From: a virus
Taxonomy: Duplodnaviria > Heunggongvirae > Uroviricota > Caudoviricetes
IMG/VR virus record: IMGVR_UViG_2698536485_000013
Length of the DNA: 5,416 nt
Strand: one strand, 5' to 3'
Shown here: piece after piece, positions 1 through 5,416 of the stretch
Layout: each line of letters begins with the position of its first letter
Numbering within the stretch: the stretch's first letter is position 1
Made by a program: the position numbers and the translations under genes
The notes under the pieces: generated by a model
What the model saw: the letters and a program-made list of their open reading frames with translations, nothing else
What the model was told of the DNA's origin: nothing
Database searches by the model: none

Positions 1-1
1 A

Positions 2-808
2 GTCTCCAGGATTTCCGGGGCGGTTCAACAATCAATTGCAAATTATATCAGCCCAATGGCCCAGCTATGGGAGTTAGCTTCATCACGTTACCACGATGCA
101 CCAGAAAGGGCGCTCTCCTCCTGGCGAGGGCATAGGCTTGATGTGGCACAAAGTAGAGAGAGCTATGAGGCATTTTCTAACAAAGAGCTATTGCAGGTGT
201 TGCAAGTATTTTCCGGTAATTCAGCAGAAAACAAAGAAATGATAGCTTTGTGTCTTATCGGTGCTTATACAGGTATGCGGATCAATGAGATAGCAAGTCT
301 CACAATAGACGATGTGAAAGAGATCGAAGGTGTGCTGTGTTTTGAAATCACACAGGGAAAAACGAAAGCTGCGGCACGTGTTGTGCCTGTGCATAGCCTT
401 ATCACTCCATTGGTGTTATCTCTTCGTGAAAAGCCTCACAATGGCTTTTTGTTCTATCACGCCAGCATTACAGAGCGTGCTGATGGTAAACGTTCCACGT
501 GGCACACGCAGAGATTTACAAGAGCTAAACGAAAGGCTTTAGGGGAAAAGGGAACAGAAAGGAAGGTGTTTCATTCTCTGAGACACGGAGTAGCACAGCT
601 TCTTGATCGAAATCAAATTCCAGAAGACAGGATCGCCCTTCTCCTGGGCCATACACGCGGCAATACAGAAACATTCCGCACATATAGCAAGAATGCAGCT
701 TCTCCAGTAGAGCTTAAAAAATATATTGAGCTTCTACGCTACCCTGAAATAGAGAAAGGCTTATCAATCAATAAAAAATCAAATTTAAGGCGTAAAACAA
801 CGCCATAG
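2..808 (+). CDS. int: Tyrosine-type site-specific recombinase (phage-type integrase), C-terminal catalytic portion; 5'-partial, the reading frame is open to the left window edge
   Basis: The translation carries the tyrosine-recombinase catalytic signature in the right order: box I Arg (AYTGMRINEI), a Lys-containing beta-turn (TQGKTKAAARVVPV), HxLRH (FHSLRHGVAQLL), LLGH, and a C-terminal Tyr (TETFRTYSK). The frame containing ATG 56 has no stop between position 2 and 56, and 250 aa is short for this family, so the N-terminal arm/core-binding region probably lies upstream of the window. Stop is TAG at 806-808. Confidence 0.88.
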   Translation, partial: VSRISGAVQQSIANYISPMAQLWELASSRYHDAPERALSSWRGHRLDVAQSRESYEAFSNKELLQVLQVFSGNSAENKEMIALCLIGAYTGMRINEIASLTIDDVKEIEGVLCFEITQGKTKAAARVVPVHSLITPLVLSLREKPHNGFLFYHASITERADGKRSTWHTQRFTRAKRKALGEKGTERKVFHSLRHGVAQLLDRNQIPEDRIALLLGHTRGNTETFRTYSKNAASPVELKKYIELLRYPEIEKGLSINKKSNLRRKTTP

Positions 809-889: not shown

Positions 890-1603
890 CTATTCCTGTT
901 TAAAGGCAGGAGTAATAGTGTCTTCACCTTCACTACTTGATTTTTCAGTGTTAACACGTTTTTTCATATTAGCCCCGATGTTCTTAGATGGCTGTGTTTT
1001 GATAGCTACAGTGTTCACAGTGCCATAAGAAACTAATCTTATTTGCTCAAAGCTAAGATCAAATACCAGGGATTCGCTTGCCTCTTCTGTGTATTCGATT
1101 CCTGTTAAAACAACGTTCTCAAAAGTTTTATTTTCTGTAACAAGAAGAAAAGGCTGTCTACTGTCCATAATCTGATTCAGGTAGTCGATAGCTAATGATC
1201 TTCTGTTCCCGTTCACCCCTGCACTCTTTAACAAGCCAGGATCGCTTTTAATCGGTGTTTCAGTGATCCTTCCTTTAAGAGAAAACTTATTGTTTTTAAT
1301 TTGAACGTGATCAGACACAGTAGCACCATTTTCTACGGGGTAGCTTGTAACATCTGCCGAACGTCTCACGTTCACATCGTCAACACTATCAAAGGCCAGT
1401 GCCATATAATTTTCATAAACATCATTGCCAGAAGATGCCAAGCCACTGGTAACAATAGCAAATCCGTTCTCTCCTTTTGTTTTATTGGCTTTGCTATTTT
1501 CGTTTTTTGTAGAGTTTATATCTTGTTCTGCTTTGTAAACAGCCTGAACGTGTTGTTCTGGAGTATTTGCTGCACGTATGGTTAAAATCCCGGCGGTCGC
1601 CAT
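890..1603 (-). CDS. Hypothetical protein, 237 aa, last gene of the minus-strand operon; function unknown
   Basis: ATG at 1603-1601, with AAGGAAA about 13 nt upstream on the minus strand. Long uninterrupted ORF; the start lies 34 nt downstream of the 609-aa gene stop, same strand. The protein is rich in Ser/Thr/Asn/Val with a Lys-rich N-terminus and acidic C-terminus. No catalytic motif recognised. Confidence 0.7.
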   Translation of the reverse strand: MATAGILTIRAANTPEQHVQAVYKAEQDINSTKNENSKANKTKGENGFAIVTSGLASSGNDVYENYMALAFDSVDDVNVRRSADVTSYPVENGATVSDHVQIKNNKFSLKGRITETPIKSDPGLLKSAGVNGNRRSLAIDYLNQIMDSRQPFLLVTENKTFENVVLTGIEYTEEASESLVFDLSFEQIRLVSYGTVNTVAIKTQPSKNIGANMKKRVNTEKSSSEGEDTITPAFKQE

Positions 1604-1637
1604 AATAATAATTTTCCTTGTAATGTTATGGCGGGAA

Positions 1638-3467
1638 TTACCCGCCGTTGGATTGTCCTGATAAGCTGGTTAATGTTAATGATTTCAAGAAGCTATCCCG
1701 ACTTGCTCTCGCTGTAAAATCCACATAATCGCTTAATCTTGATGTGTCTGAATTAATAGTAAGAGGAACCTCTGTTACCACTTCAAATGTAGGATTCAGA
1801 TTAAACACAGGAGATAAATTATAAGCCGGAGTTGTCATTGCAAGATTATTTAAAGCACCCTGTTTGAGATTGGTTATCGGTGCTTCGCTGACTGACATTT
1901 TTACATCTGACACAGAAGAATTATCATCGAAAAGCAATCCCTTAATCGTGTTAAAGAGAGAATGACTATTATCAGGTGTAGTTGTTGCAGTGCCAGCGCC
2001 TTTATATTGGTCAGGAACGAGATTAGAAAGATGCTGTTTCATCCCTTCATTGCTTAATGGCGGTGCATCACCTAAATTTTTCTGAATAGCATCTGTCTTA
2101 TCATCATTACGATTAAACCAGTTTACAATCTTCATAATAGCTTCAAAGAGACTTCCTACAGCTTCTCCCAGCTTCGTAAAATACGGAGTGAGATTAGAAA
2201 GGTTTTTCAAAAACTCTTCCGTTACTTTTGGATCGAGAGATTTCATAAAGCCGTCTACGAATGCTACTTGTCTTGCATCAGAAAGCTGTGAAAGCTGTCT
2301 GTTTAGTTCTCTGAATTTAACAATAGAGTCTTGCTGTGTTTCTGTTAGCCATTTTCCAGAGGCTTTTTGCTGATTAATACTTTCTTGTACATCTTTAACG
2401 GAACGTTGCCAATATTTTGACGTAAGCATCAAATCATCGCCCAGGTCTTCTAAACGTTGTCCAATTTGGGAGTCTGAAAACCCTTTTTTCATCATTCCAT
2501 TAACAGCCTTAGAAATTAATCCAGCCGGATTATCAGCAAATTTTTTAAGGTCGCTTTTGTTAATAACACCGATGTTTAGAAGTTCATTAATAGCATTATC
2601 ACCGCCTTTCCATTCAGATTTTCCGGTTTTCTTGTCTTTCACCAATTCAGCTTCACTGTAGGATTTTGCGGCACGTTCCCTAACATCTTTCATCTGATCC
2701 AGGTATTTCCTAGCCCCTTGATCACCCATCATAGAGTCAACGCCGTTTCTATAGGCCCATTCTGTAATGTTGTACATCTGGTTAACGTCTACACCGCCAA
2801 GCCTTGCACGTTGAATTAGCTCTCCTTGTGTCTCAGCATTGGCAAAACTATTAGCCATAAATTCACCGGTTTTACTAACCGCCATCACGCCAGCAGCAGC
2901 CGTAGCGCCTCCAAATAACAGAGCGCCCATAGTGGCGGAATTCCCTGATCCTCCCTTAACGGGGGCTAATTGAACTTTTCTGTTGCCATTAATCTTACGT
3001 TGTTGTTGTTGTAAGCGTTTCATCTGGCTATTCATACGTGCAAGCGAGATAGCCCCTTGCTCATATTGTTTCGCTATCTCTCTAGCCTGTGCAATAGCTT
3101 TGTATTGTTCCGCTACAGAGAGGCGGTGCATTGCACTGATAGAGCTTGACACATCAAGGAGCTTTAATTCTGCTTTCTCTTTACGTGCTGCTATTTGTTG
3201 CTGTTGCCTTGCCTGTGCTCTTGCTGCGGCAGCTTGTGCTCTTTGATTCTGTTTTTCTGTTTTGGCTTTCTGTTGAGCAATCTTATCTACTTCGCTTTGT
3301 GCTTTCTTATAGCCTTTAGTGACATTATCAAATCTTAATTTAGCTGGCTTGATGTTTTCTGCGAATTCCTTTAAGCCTGTAATAGAGTCTTTCGCTTTTT
3401 TCAAGCTGTCTTTATCTACACTAAATGTAACTGTGTTCTTAATTTTAGAAGTGTTAATTTCTAACAT
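1638..3467 (-). CDS. Hypothetical large protein, 609 aa: N-terminal Lys/Gln/Ala-rich predicted coiled coil, a Gly/Ala-rich hydrophobic segment, then a large C-terminal domain; function unknown
   Basis: ATG at 3467-3465 preceded by AAGGGGA about 8 nt upstream; stop TAA at 1640-1638. Residues ~55-165 (nt ~2970-3300) are heptad-like and charged (AQQKAKTEKQNQRAQAAAARAQARQQQQIAARKEKAELKLL, RLQQQQRKIN). Residues ~172-200 (nt ~2868-2954) read GGSGNSATMGALLFGGATAAAGVMAV. The start lies 18 nt downstream of the 66-aa gene stop. Confidence 0.8.
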   Translation of the reverse strand: MLEINTSKIKNTVTFSVDKDSLKKAKDSITGLKEFAENIKPAKLRFDNVTKGYKKAQSEVDKIAQQKAKTEKQNQRAQAAAARAQARQQQQIAARKEKAELKLLDVSSSISAMHRLSVAEQYKAIAQAREIAKQYEQGAISLARMNSQMKRLQQQQRKINGNRKVQLAPVKGGSGNSATMGALLFGGATAAAGVMAVSKTGEFMANSFANAETQGELIQRARLGGVDVNQMYNITEWAYRNGVDSMMGDQGARKYLDQMKDVRERAAKSYSEAELVKDKKTGKSEWKGGDNAINELLNIGVINKSDLKKFADNPAGLISKAVNGMMKKGFSDSQIGQRLEDLGDDLMLTSKYWQRSVKDVQESINQQKASGKWLTETQQDSIVKFRELNRQLSQLSDARQVAFVDGFMKSLDPKVTEEFLKNLSNLTPYFTKLGEAVGSLFEAIMKIVNWFNRNDDKTDAIQKNLGDAPPLSNEGMKQHLSNLVPDQYKGAGTATTTPDNSHSLFNTIKGLLFDDNSSVSDVKMSVSEAPITNLKQGALNNLAMTTPAYNLSPVFNLNPTFEVVTEVPLTINSDTSRLSDYVDFTARASRDSFLKSLTLTSLSGQSNGG

Positions 3468-3485
3468 TTAAAATCCCCTTATTAA

Positions 3486-3686
3486 TCATTTTTTACCACC
3501 TTCTTTGCTTAAGAAATGGTGTAGAGCCTGATCAATACTCTCGTTTAGTCTGAACATACGGGCTTTTACTCCTTCATATGGAACATCTAAGAGAGAACAT
3601 AGATATTTCAGATTTAACAAGCCTCTAGAATCATTAGCATCTAAATGTACGTGTACACCATTTTTTGATTTCAGAATCACTTCCAT
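3486..3686 (-). CDS. Small hypothetical protein, 66 aa, tightly linked upstream of the 609-aa gene
   Basis: ATG at 3686-3684 with GAGAGGTGA about 7 nt upstream on the minus strand; stop 18 nt before the 609-aa gene start. Confidence is lowered by the short length and lack of recognisable motifs. Confidence 0.55.
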   Translation of the reverse strand: MEVILKSKNGVHVHLDANDSRGLLNLKYLCSLLDVPYEGVKARMFRLNESIDQALHHFLSKEGGKK

Positions 3687-3710
3687 ATTTTAATCACCTC
3701 TCAAAATTTA

Positions 3711-3755
3711 AAAATAAATAAAAAAAGGCGAAGCGTGTTATTCACGCCACGCCTC
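3711..3755 (-). terminator. Putative intrinsic (rho-independent) terminator or attenuator on the minus strand, between the 342-aa gene and the 66-aa gene
   Basis: Seen in sequence, read on the minus strand: GC-rich interrupted hairpin (3726-3730 AGGCG with 3751-3755 CGCCT; 3733-3737 GCGTG with 3743-3747 CACGC; loop TTATT), immediately followed by a T-rich run (reverse complement of 3711-3725 = TTTTTTATTTATTTT). It begins 18 nt after the 342-aa gene stop. Confidence 0.55.
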
Positions 3756-3772
3756 TATTACACGTTAAAATA

Positions 3773-4801
3773 TTATTTAACAGTGATTTGAACGGAGAAG
3801 CCAACGCCGTGGTTTACAACCATCTGGCTATTCTCTGTAACAACGTTAACAGCATCACCACGAGAAGATTCATAGCTGTAGCTATACACCTCAGCAGGAG
3901 CGGCATTGATCAGTTCAAAGGTGCTGGAAGCAGCCCCGTAGATGTTCTGATATACATTAGAGCCTTTAGCAAACTTCGGAACCGCTACAGCGTCTGCGGT
4001 CATATGTGCAAGGTGTAGCGGATCTACCAGTTTAACAACATCAATGTTAGTTCCTGGAATAGTGAACGCTGTCACCCCCGGTAGCAGGTCACGACGCTGA
4101 TACACAACGTTCCCTTCTTCCAGTGGGCTTACATACTGGAATGCGTTTGCCATACCCGCAGAGAATCGAATTGCAGAGAAGGCTTCAGGTTTACAGAACA
4201 CAACAACACGCTCAATGGTTGCAGCCTGTTTTTGTGCCTTAGCAATCATATCCGTAGCAATCTGATCAAATTCTTTAAAAATCTTCGTGGTGTCAGTGCT
4301 GGAAGCGTTCACAGTGGCTTTCATAGCTGATACGTTAAACAGCTTGCCCCATTCGATAAGAACATCATCAGTTTTAGGCGTGTAAGTTTTACCGCTAAAC
4401 AGAGATGCAGCCAGCACGCTCTCTTTTGTACGCTGATACGCTACGTGGTGTTTAGCAACATAGTCAGCATAGATATCAGTGAGTGTTTCCTGAAAATCAG
4501 TGCCAGGCTTACGCTTGCCTTGAACATCAGAAGGACGGATCACATCTTCACGAAGAAAATACGGGATTTCAATAAGCCATTCTTTACCTTGTTCTCGCTT
4601 AGTAACGTTGTGTTCAGAAGAGAAACGAGAGGTTTCTTTGTTAAAGAGAGATTCGTTGCTTTCGACAAGCTGGGAAACAGCTACTTTATGAGAACTAACG
4701 CCCACCGGATCAGTGAAGTCGAGGGTAGAGAGCAGAAAGTTACGCGTGCTGTGTGTCTGGAAAAGCGGAGCTAAATCAACGTAATCATTACCTAGAATCA
4801 T
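3773..4801 (-). CDS. Hypothetical protein, 342 aa, second gene of the minus-strand operon; function unknown (structural versus enzymatic not resolvable from sequence)
   Basis: ATG at 4801-4799 preceded by AAAGGAA about 7 nt upstream; long clean ORF, with only a 15-nt gap to the upstream gene remnant. Followed by the terminator-like hairpin. C-terminal third is rich in beta-formers (Val/Tyr/Ser/Thr). Confidence 0.8.
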   Translation of the reverse strand: MILGNDYVDLAPLFQTHSTRNFLLSTLDFTDPVGVSSHKVAVSQLVESNESLFNKETSRFSSEHNVTKREQGKEWLIEIPYFLREDVIRPSDVQGKRKPGTDFQETLTDIYADYVAKHHVAYQRTKESVLAASLFSGKTYTPKTDDVLIEWGKLFNVSAMKATVNASSTDTTKIFKEFDQIATDMIAKAQKQAATIERVVVFCKPEAFSAIRFSAGMANAFQYVSPLEEGNVVYQRRDLLPGVTAFTIPGTNIDVVKLVDPLHLAHMTADAVAVPKFAKGSNVYQNIYGAASSTFELINAAPAEVYSYSYESSRGDAVNVVTENSQMVVNHGVGFSVQITVK

Positions 4802-4816
4802 TTATTATTCCTTTTA

Positions 4817-4998
4817 TTAAGAAGTGAAAACAGAATGGAACCCTTCAAGCTGAAAGCCTTTTTTAATTAATGCTGTTTTTGCTGCTTCACTTACAGCATT
4901 CAGGGCATCAGCTTTGATGCATACAAGCCCAGCATTGCTACGTAGCACATCTACAGGCTTGTTTTCCCCAGCCGTTACAAATTCACTCAGAACAACAT
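4817..4998 (-). pseudogene. 3' remnant (~59 codons) of the operon's 5'-proximal gene, interrupted by the IS3 insertion
   Basis: The minus-strand frame is open from the IS3 junction (4999) down to TAA at 4819-4817 and continues into IS3 sequence. The only start in the ORF track (5014) lies inside the IS3 terminal repeat, so it is fortuitous. Tight 15-nt spacing and an RBS for the next gene support a real, formerly longer gene. Confidence 0.5.
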
Positions 4999-5037
4999 TG
5001 ATCTTACCCAGCAATAGTGGACACGCGGCTAAGTGAG
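4999..5037 (+). repeat. IS3 left terminal inverted repeat (IRL), approximate extent
   Basis: Established knowledge: the IS3 terminal inverted repeats are about 39 bp and begin with 5'-TG. The exact inner boundary is not verifiable here because the right end is outside the window. Confidence 0.6.
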
Positions 5038-5063
5038 TAAACTCTCAGTCAGAGGTGACTCAC

Positions 5064-5363
5064 ATGACAAAAACAGTATCAACCAGTAAAAAACCCCGTA
5101 AACAGCATTCGCCTGAATTTCGCAGTGAAGCCCTGAAGCTTGCTGAACGCATCGGTGTTACTGCCGCAGCCCGTGAACTCAGCCTGTATGAATCACAGCG
5201 CTACAACTGGCGCAGTAAACAGCAAAATCAGCAGACGTCTTCTGAACGTGAACTGGAGATGTCTACCGAGATTGCACGTCTCAAACGCCAGCTGGCAGAA
5301 CGGGATGAAGAGCTGGCTATCCTCCAAAAGGCCGCGACATACTTCGCGAAGCGCCTGAAATGA
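5064..5363 (+). CDS. insE: IS3 transposase OrfA (helix-turn-helix DNA-binding and leucine-zipper component)
   Basis: The protein MTKTVSTSKKPRKQHSPEFRSEALKLAERIGVTAAARELSLYESQ...LKRQLAERDEELAILQKAATYFAKRLK matches IS3 OrfA as I recall it. ATG at 5064 has GAGGTGA 5 nt upstream. The ORF track's start at 5055 is an in-frame GTG and is probably not the real start. Stop TGA at 5361-5363. Confidence 0.9.
   Translation: MTKTVSTSKKPRKQHSPEFRSEALKLAERIGVTAAARELSLYESQRYNWRSKQQNQQTSSERELEMSTEIARLKRQLAERDEELAILQKAATYFAKRLK
5326..5363 (+). promoter_or_regulatory. Probable programmed -1 ribosomal frameshift region of IS3 (A-AAG slippery motif near the orfA 3' end, upstream of the orfA/orfB overlap)
   Basis: Seen in sequence: CAA AAG at 5325-5330 in the orfA frame, followed by GC-rich sequence and the ATGA overlap. 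Established knowledge: IS3-family elements make the OrfAB transposase by -1 frameshifting. The exact slip site is assigned from memory and is not verified. Confidence 0.4.
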
Positions 5364-5416
5364 AGTATGTCTTTATTGAAAAACATCAAGCTGAGTTCAG
5401 CATCAAAGCAATGTGC
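5360..5416 (+). CDS. insF: IS3 transposase OrfB (DDE catalytic component), first 19 codons only; 3'-partial at the window edge
   Basis: ATG at 5360-5362 overlaps the orfA stop (ATGA) in the -1 frame and encodes MKYVFIEKHQAEFSIKAMC, the recognisable N-terminus of IS3 OrfB. Confidence 0.85.
   Translation, partial: MKYVFIEKHQAEFSIKAMC

Follow-up and report, generated by a model that had tools for sequence, protein, structure and literature searches.

An IS3 insertion divides a putative head decoration gene in the late operon of a phage-like island of Escherichia coli

Introduction

The stretch of viral DNA analysed here (5,416 nt in all; hereafter, the window) carries a run of minus-strand genes that stops, near its right edge, at the left end of an insertion sequence, which raises the question of what the element has done to the gene at the boundary and to the genes that lie downstream of it. 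An earlier note on this DNA proposed that IS3 had inserted into the first gene of an operon, probably cutting the operon off from its native promoter, and it offered two readings of the event, the silencing of a costly or toxic accessory system and neutral decay. The explanation that accounts best for the locus, and in which we place high confidence taken as a whole, is that IS3 splits a gene for a cement protein, that the genes downstream are probably silenced, that the insertion had a single origin, and that the allele reflects neutral decay.

Results

The window differs at 2 of its 5416 bases from E. coli 13E0725, a cattle isolate from Germany. The left end of IS3 occupies positions 4999-5416 (plus strand), beginning with the left inverted repeat at 4999 (first bases TGATCTTACCC) and running through orfA (5064-5363; Pfam HTH_Tnp_1, E 8.9e-8) into the start of orfB; the remaining 840 bp fall past the window edge. 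In the 13E0725 record (L001) the full element is 1258 bp long (10300-11557) and ends in ...GGGTAGGATCA. The reverse complement of this right end (TGATCCTACCC...) and the left end (TGATCTTACCC...) form imperfect terminal inverted repeats of the form TG...CA that agree at 28 of 40 positions, counted by eye on both ends. RefSeq annotates the element as 'IS3-like element IS3 family transposase, programmed frameshift', in a feature joined from two pieces; the fusion of orfA and orfB by a programmed -1 frameshift is taken from that feature, the domain scan having covered orfA. The part of IS3 that lies in the window matches 3575 E. coli records at ≥99%, and the copies in two other records (L003 and L004) are likewise 1258 bp long, with 3 mismatches each. 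In its ends, its length, its 3-bp duplication and its orfA/orfB organization the element agrees with known IS3 (IS3 family, IS3 group; insE/insF of K-12), from which it does not differ at all; only its insertion site is particular, the same junction being found in 7 of 5426 complete E. coli genomes.

The trinucleotide CAT that borders the element on the left (4996-4998) is repeated directly after the IS3 right end (L001 11558-11560), and the IS-free allele has one CAT only. On the minus strand, the reading frame that closes with the stop codon at 4817-4819 remains open over the first 16 codons of IS3 sequence and meets an in-frame stop only at 5045-5047. When IS3 and one CAT are deleted in silico, the flanks join into an in-frame ORF of 120 aa, the first 61 codons of which lie beyond IS3 and outside the window. 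The IS-free allele of strain E423 (363 nt, WP_089649532.1) has the same length, with amino-acid differences, and its frame is continuous across the insertion point. Seven complete assemblies, each independent of the others, share the junction, which rules out an assembly artefact. We therefore confirm the insertion of IS3 into a gene at 4999, and with it much of what the earlier note had read from the window: a frame running from 4998 into IS3 without a stop, an IS3 end exactly at 4999 (supported by TGATCTTACCC and by the 1258-bp element in the full record), an upstream gene whose 5' part lies past the element, and an orfA transcribed away from the operon. The note had also suggested looking for a 3-bp target-site duplication, joining the flanks in silico and searching for IS-free alleles; the first is the CAT on both sides of IS3, the second gives the 120-aa ORF, and the third are present in about 290 complete E. 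coli genomes, with the E423 allele colinear.

What the insertion leaves behind are two fragments of one gene. The 3' remnant (4817-4998, minus strand), delimited by the in silico reconstruction and frame analysis, is 182 bp long and consists of 59 complete codons, two bases of a split codon, and the stop, which lies 15 bp from the start codon of the capsid gene; this C-terminal remnant of 59 codons is without a promoter. The 5' half now encodes 61 native residues followed by five IS-encoded residues (VILPT) and a stop. The structure is that of a canonical 1258-bp IS3 transposed into codon 61/62 of the 120-aa gene, with duplication of CAT.

From its predicted fold and its gene neighborhood we infer that the interrupted gene probably encodes a head decoration (cement) protein of the type represented by lambda gpD, P21 SHP and phi92 gp123. 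Approximately 97 database homologues of the 120-aa protein were found, most of the full-length ones 117-127 aa long, with close homologues in Citrobacter, Klebsiella, Leclercia and Kluyvera as well. The family is tiny, an exhaustive profile search of 1.8 billion clusters yielding 20 representatives at E ≤ 0.001, and it is confined mainly to islands of Enterobacteriaceae. Neither the 120-aa protein nor the intact allele nor distant relatives matched any family in Pfam, PHROGs, PADLOC or NCBIfam, and for the 120-aa protein Pfam gave no match even at E ≤ 1. A family profile compared by hhalign with lambda gpD and phi92 gp123 was not significant, tblastn with the 120-aa protein as query detected no homologue in 50,697 phage records, and a profile search of PDB sequences with the cement family yielded a chance-level match at best.

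An AF2 model was built on the intact allele P0001, which is 97% identical to the reconstructed protein, and reached a pLDDT of 81.5 and a pTM of 0.74; with a shallow alignment of 22 sequences the pLDDT was 48.9, and the better model was obtained only once distant homologues had joined the alignment. In a Foldseek search of the PDB with this model, ranks 1-12 were all phage capsid chains or SHP (prob 0.93-1.00, TM 0.47-0.60), among them capsid chains of Sf14, Bas63, PhiTE and YSD1 and the crystal structures of P21 SHP, which is a homologue of lambda gpD. The best fold matches in BFVD are annotated 'Head decoration protein' (E 2.7e-4). The Foldseek E-values behind the decoration assignment are modest (3e-3 to 3e-4), and the query is itself a predicted structure. 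Synteny points the same way: every relative examined, the distant ones from other hosts among them, has the gene directly 5' of a PF03864 capsid gene, and this order matches that of gp123 (cement) and gp124 (capsid) in phi92. Lambda has the same arrangement in its genes D and E. The island protein thus resembles gpD, SHP and gp123 in size (~110-130 aa), in its place 5' of a gpE-type capsid gene, and in predicted fold, whereas it has no detectable sequence similarity to gpD, to gp123 or to curated decoration families such as Pfam HDPD. The assignment as a decoration protein is accordingly made on predicted fold and synteny, sequence giving it no support.

The split gene appears to be one of six in a likely late structural operon that encodes, in order, a 70-aa protein, the cement protein, the capsid protein, a 66-aa protein, a tape measure protein and a tail-tube initiator. 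The 70-aa gene lies 5' of the cement gene, and its stop codon overlaps the cement start (ATGA), so that the cement gene is the second gene in the operon. The 342-aa major capsid protein (3773-4801, minus strand) belongs to the lambda gpE-type HK97 fold family (Pfam Phage_cap_E, E 5.7e-14; also PHROG 29, 'major head protein') and is 22% identical over its full length to the phi92 major capsid protein gp124 (E 4e-10). Just 3' of the capsid gene, the terminator scan found a hairpin with a U-tract (3715-3756, minus strand), which folds as RNA at -20.6 kcal/mol (z = -4.67) and is followed by UUUUUUUAUUU. An ORF for a 66-aa protein with no assigned role comes next (3486-3686, minus strand); it has no family match in Pfam, PHROGs, PADLOC or NCBIfam and no similarity to phi92 gp133, and distant relatives have a gene of 59-60 aa at the same place after the capsid gene.

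The last two genes of the operon have relatives among the phi92-like virulent myophages. The 609-aa tape measure homologue (1638-3467, minus strand; PHROG 16051, 'tail length tape measure protein', E 8.8e-54) matches the phi92 tape measure gp134 (659 aa) by BLASTP from approximately residue 86 to the C-terminus (E 8e-34), with a separate gp134 match over its first 66 residues (55% identity); it is 50 residues shorter than gp134. The 237-aa Dit-like protein, encoded last in the operon (890-1603, minus strand; Pfam Dit_like, E 3.4e-29), is 58-61% identical to gp135 of these phages, which is the tail-tube initiator in the cryo-EM structure of phi92 (PMC13450770). At the nucleotide level, a blastn search of the island against phages gave matches (~70%) in two places only, in the tube-initiator gene and at the 5' end of the tape measure gene, and none for the late leader.

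This leader, 5' of the 70-aa gene, is an intergenic stretch of 333-350 bp that is nearly invariant in five islands. It contains the best promoter-like site (TTGACA-17-TAATAT with a TG extension, L001 12264-12236), which stands approximately 0.7 kb past the far end of IS3, followed in the 5' to 3' direction by a GGGGAG...CUCCCC hairpin, a palindrome, and a strong terminator-type hairpin (-18.1 kcal/mol, z = -4.8, then UUUUAUUUU). The likely unit is therefore promoter, leader terminator, 70-aa gene, cement, capsid, terminator, 66-aa gene, tape measure and tube initiator, a layout of leader and internal terminator hairpins that suggests control by antitermination. The promoter scan found no promoter-like site on the minus strand of IS3, in the 182-bp remnant, or between IS3 and the capsid gene; it is a crude consensus match, and sites in the region were fewer than expected from shuffled sequence.

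These results change two points of the earlier note and leave a third standing. The interrupted gene is not the first of its operon, being preceded by the 70-aa gene with its ATGA overlap and by a promoter-like site further 5'. Nor is the operon a costly or toxic accessory system: it encodes cement, capsid, tape measure and tube-initiator proteins and so is structural, part of a phage-like island. Scans against Pfam, PHROGs and PADLOC detected neither a toxin-like nor a defence domain in it, and a defence or toxin operon was ruled out for want of any supporting domain. That the operon has been separated from a promoter beyond the window is plausible; the candidate site ~0.7 kb past IS3 makes this a reasonable conclusion, as does the lack of any promoter-like site between IS3 and the capsid gene.

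The operon belongs to a phage-like island of approximately 12-13 kb that is integrated at tRNA-Thr of E. coli, flanked by paoD with a LysR pseudogene at one end and by tRNA-Thr with proA at the other. Its tyrosine integrase is present in the window as a 3' fragment (28-808, plus strand; Pfam Phage_integrase, E 1.1e-17), a pseudogene that amounts to the 3' two-thirds of the gene and is annotated 'site-specific integrase, missing N-terminus'; the intact form, of 425 aa, is found in record L002. The first 27 bases of the window (1-27, minus strand) are the terminus of an IS629-like element of the IS3 family that is inserted in this integrase gene. The element is 1310 bp long (L001 4019-5328), has the ends TGAACCGCCCCGG...CCGGGGCGGTTCA, is annotated as an IS3 family transposase, and, compared with the empty site in L002, shows a 3-bp overlap. 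Among the seven carriers of the IS3 junction only 13E0725 has the IS629-like junction; the other six have an intact integrase there, indicating that the IS629-like element arrived later than IS3.

Beyond the late operon and the integrase, the island encodes a 229-aa HTH protein that matches PHROG replication initiators, and it has a 3-kb, ORF-poor, AT-rich stretch with five or six tandem 22-bp iterons and two more approximately 230 bp further on. An Rfam scan of the island, this stretch included, found nothing. No portal, terminase, protease, head-tail connector, sheath or tube protein was recognized in the island in Pfam, PHROGs or NCBIfam, a screen in which several small island proteins had no family match. 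The same gene order is found with another integrase at tRNA-Gly, and also in relatives from metagenomes and draft assemblies. For the intact family we rejected the idea of a random prophage remnant, because E. coli and these relatives share a conserved set and order of genes and because the island is found at two different tRNA sites. In IMG/VR, 12 loci were retrieved with the capsid protein as query, their contigs measuring 19.6-76.3 kb and bearing per-genome UViG identifiers; no stand-alone contig of island size was among them, and so IMG/VR offers no evidence of packaging.

At the IS3 junction, the seven carrier genomes are 99.9% identical to the window. They are 13E0725 and 13E0780 from German cattle, four bovine isolates of the OkiPb series, and one isolate of human origin, 2014C-3061. 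Among IS-free alleles, the closest share only ~95% identity. Seven near-identical carriers are consistent with a single ancestral insertion, and the simplest history would be one event in the common ancestor of a small, mostly bovine lineage. The region around the cement/capsid junction has matches in 343 of the 5426 complete genomes, of which 298 have it contiguous at ≥80% coverage, while parts of the late operon match in approximately 535 of the 5426. About 290 complete genomes have a near-complete, closely related late operon, and 287 cover ≥80% of it in one place.

Other insertion sequences have entered the same operon elsewhere. IS3 has inserted independently in the 5' part of the tape measure gene in strain 1919D3 (duplication GGC) and in the capsid gene in strains IAL7252 and IAL7254 (duplication GAT), and in other strains the late operon is interrupted by IS5, IS600 and ISKpn26. 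Of 32 full-length operon copies in a sample drawn at even spacing, 4 contained an IS; truncation affected a few others. The three IS3 insertions in the operon share one orientation, which could hint at something non-random; with n = 3 the agreement is not significant.

Discussion

The most direct consequence of the insertion would be loss of the cement protein. The capsid, tape measure and tube-initiator genes would be largely silenced as well: a transcript coming from the native promoter would reach them only after 1.26 kb of antisense IS3 RNA that is not translated. Rho-dependent polarity is expected on untranslated RNA, and because translation of the split gene stops five codons into the antisense IS3 RNA, polarity on the genes downstream would be expected here, a view drawn from sequence scans and general knowledge.

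Were there no real silencing, the capsid and tail genes would still be expressed and the cement protein alone would be lost, an outcome that we consider unlikely. Two routes could lead to it, and neither seems probable: the native promoter could be read through across IS3, or a promoter could lie in or near the IS3 left end. For read-through, the terminator-like hairpin in the native leader suggests that the operon may be transcribed by an antitermination-competent polymerase, which might ignore signals in IS3. Loss of decoration alone could also be borne, as the D mutants of lambda illustrate, many phages tolerating it when they package short genomes. The halt in translation, however, leaves ~1.25 kb of untranslated RNA ahead of the capsid gene, and for the second route neither the minus strand of IS3 nor the 182-bp remnant has a promoter-like site. 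In the literature on IS3 and IS911, moreover, the outward-facing promoter element of IS3-family elements is at the right end, not the left. Probable silencing of the downstream genes thus fits the locus better.

Whether such silencing was selected is a separate matter. If the late operon were costly or harmful to its host, an IS that disconnected it from its promoter would be favored and the allele would be adaptive, a reading to which we give little probability; the cost would then come, for example, from leaky expression of the capsid or tape measure protein or from abortive interference. In favor of selection, at least six separate IS insertions (three of IS3, and IS5, IS600 and ISKpn26) fall within one 4.5-kb operon in different strains, full-length copies with an IS make up 4 of the 32 sampled, the three IS3 copies have a common orientation, and the IS3 allele persists in strains from Germany and Japan and in the human isolate 2014C-3061. 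Yet most copies of the operon are intact (298 of 343 contiguous at the cement/capsid junction; 287 genomes covering ≥80% of the operon), the insertions are scattered across genes instead of clustering by the promoter, and the scans of the operon detected neither a toxin-like nor a defence domain. The integrase has been hit too in 13E0725, which fits general decay, and in IS-rich cattle and STEC lineages IS copies commonly build up in dispensable DNA.

Insertions spread over several genes, a majority of intact copies, and the lack of a toxin or defence domain together favor decay over selection, and tolerated, neutral IS decay of a dispensable element is the most likely explanation. Neutral decay, which the earlier note had put forward as an equal alternative, is the better fit, given the several IS types in the operon elsewhere and the IS629-like element in the integrase. 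The case is like IS-mediated prophage decay in IS-rich E. coli, in which structural and integrase genes are hit by IS3-family elements and the results are inherited clonally. It differs from an IS-decayed lambdoid or P2-like prophage in its target, a compact island that has no portal, terminase or protease genes. That the gene was never interrupted, a short one beginning naturally within 4817-4998 with IS3 just upstream, is vanishingly improbable, as the 65-aa ORF in a mechanical ORF list that would speak for it has its TTG start at 5014, inside the IS3 inverted repeat, while a gene of ~120 aa spans the insertion point in every IS-free relative and the missing 61 codons are present in frame beyond IS3, with the CAT duplication.

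The nature of the island invites a more tentative proposal. It has general features of satellites, namely an integrase, a replication module (a Rep-like protein and iterons) and an incomplete set of virion genes, and the homology of its tail proteins to those of virulent phi92-like myophages suggests that it might be an undescribed phage satellite, or a satellite-derived interference island, of such phages (Stephanstirmvirinae and relatives); from gene content we rate this as possible but doubtful. In the literature searched, coverage of which is incomplete, neither this island nor any satellite of phi92-like phages was found described. If the island is a satellite, its late operon might supply only four virion parts (cement, capsid, a shorter tape measure and the tube initiator), although we hold this loosely. 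It is conceivable, with similar reserve, that the satellite would build its own small shell and that the tail would be re-measured or seeded by the island. Portal, terminase, sheath, tube and baseplate would perhaps be taken from the helper, a suggestion that we offer with the same caution.

Compared with known satellites, the island does not fit the definitions of cf-PICIs, P4, PICIs or PLE. Like cf-PICIs and the PLE of V. cholerae, it is small, is integrated at a tRNA gene, and combines an integrase of its own with a replication-initiator-like protein, iterons and a partial virion gene set, and as in PLE the nearest phage relatives of some of its genes are virulent myophages. PLE, however, lacks a capsid protein, and the island encodes one. 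The cf-PICIs have portal, protease, connector and small terminase genes, which the island does not, and they have no tail genes and use helper tails, whereas the island encodes homologues of a tape measure and a tube initiator; with the defining genes absent and tail genes present, membership in the cf-PICIs was ruled out.

Conclusion

As an event, this is ordinary IS3 pseudogenisation, already flagged in RefSeq, and it leaves views on IS elements and operon polarity unchanged. What it provides is a clean natural mutant allele in seven sequenced strains, with the putative cement gene knocked out and a probable polar effect on the genes downstream, and closely related strains whose island is intact, such as O26:H11 strain 11368, exist for comparison. 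If the satellite reading is true, the IS3 allele would be a natural knock-out of the capsid and tail machinery of such an element. The follow-up also exposed a compact and widespread family of islands, the virion genes of which mirror a subset of the genes of phi92-like phages, and this family deserves separate attention. If the island proves to be a satellite of large virulent coliphages, the biology of E. coli satellites would extend beyond temperate helpers.

Insertion Sequences in the Island

The late operon has been entered repeatedly by mobile elements, and independent insertions of IS3, IS5, IS600 and ISKpn26 were found in the late operons of other strains. An IS3 copy lies in the tape measure gene of strain 1919D3 (L003 7001-8258; target duplication GGC) and another in the capsid gene of strain IAL7252 (L004 7324-8581; target duplication GAT), and further strains carry IS5, IS600 and ISKpn26 (matches H110, H113, H116 and H131). 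The orientation of IS3 relative to the late operon was identical in all three copies, which at n = 3 is not significant.

A 1310-bp IS629-like element (L001 4019-5328), inside whose terminal repeat the window starts (window 1-27), splits the island integrase in strain 13E0725, the only strain with this insertion. The empty site shows a 3-bp overlap. The integrase is intact at this site in the six other genomes that carry the IS3, indicating that the IS629-like element arrived later than the IS3.

Integration Sites and Distant Relatives

In strain IAL7252 (L004 2877-16445) the same island gene set adjoins a tRNA-Gly gene, not tRNA-Thr, and the integrase is a different protein of 406 aa, indicating that the cargo module has been combined with different integration modules. 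The most distant relatives (L005-L007; 8001-9653 and 314-5889), found next to trpE/yciO-type chromosomal genes, retain a trio of cement, capsid and 59-aa genes, preceded by a 2.1-kb stretch in which no genes were called; the proteins of the divergent block opposite the trio include a TMP_3 tape measure together with a Phage_phiTE_211 protein. This is a different layout, possibly of an element of the same type.

A Candidate Replication Origin

Every island contains an AT-rich region of 2-3 kb that is nearly devoid of ORFs (L011 16143-19149, L002 13321-15932 and L001 14588-16618), for which Rfam returned zero matches. Within it are five or six tandem copies of a 22-bp repeat (CCCCTAGCTCACTATGACCTAC; in L011 at 17360-17492), a further two copies some 230 bp beyond the array (L011 17706-17749), and other sets of short repeats. 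The region is probably a replication origin for the adjoining 229-aa Rep-like HTH protein, although 3 kb is much non-coding DNA for one origin. In some island copies, including that of 13E0725, the region also holds a gene for a 179-aa "recombinase family protein" (L001 16618-17157; L003 15061-15600), which is absent from the copies in E423 and O26:H11 11368.

The Late Operon: Predicted Expression Signals and Likeness to phi92

Upstream of the 70-aa gene, outside the window, is a minus-strand leader (L001 11951-12294). Across five islands, with coding regions that diverge by 5-7%, this leader is nearly unchanged. Its elements are a promoter-like site close to consensus, a GGGGAG/CUCCCC hairpin, a ATGCATAC/GTATGCAT palindrome and, ahead of this first gene, a terminator-type hairpin (-18.1 kcal/mol), a layout reminiscent of antitermination-controlled late promoters. 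A second strong terminator-type hairpin, followed by a U-tract (window 3715-3756, minus strand), separates the capsid gene from the 66-aa, tape measure and tube-initiator genes. The terminator predicted at this position would allow one promoter to give high capsid expression and lower expression of the tail genes.

Only four phi92 virion proteins have homologues encoded in the late operon (window 890-4801), and these keep the relative order of their phi92 counterparts (L012 6809-16410). The cement protein is matched by fold only, the capsid protein is 22% identical to gp124, the tape measure homologue has 609 aa where gp134 has 659, and the tube initiator reaches 58-61% identity to gp135. Searches of the island turned up no gene for a portal, terminase, protease, sheath or tube. 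This gene content, with four phi92-like virion genes in phi92 order and none of those others, suggests that the island is an undescribed satellite of, or interference island against, phi92-like virulent myophages.
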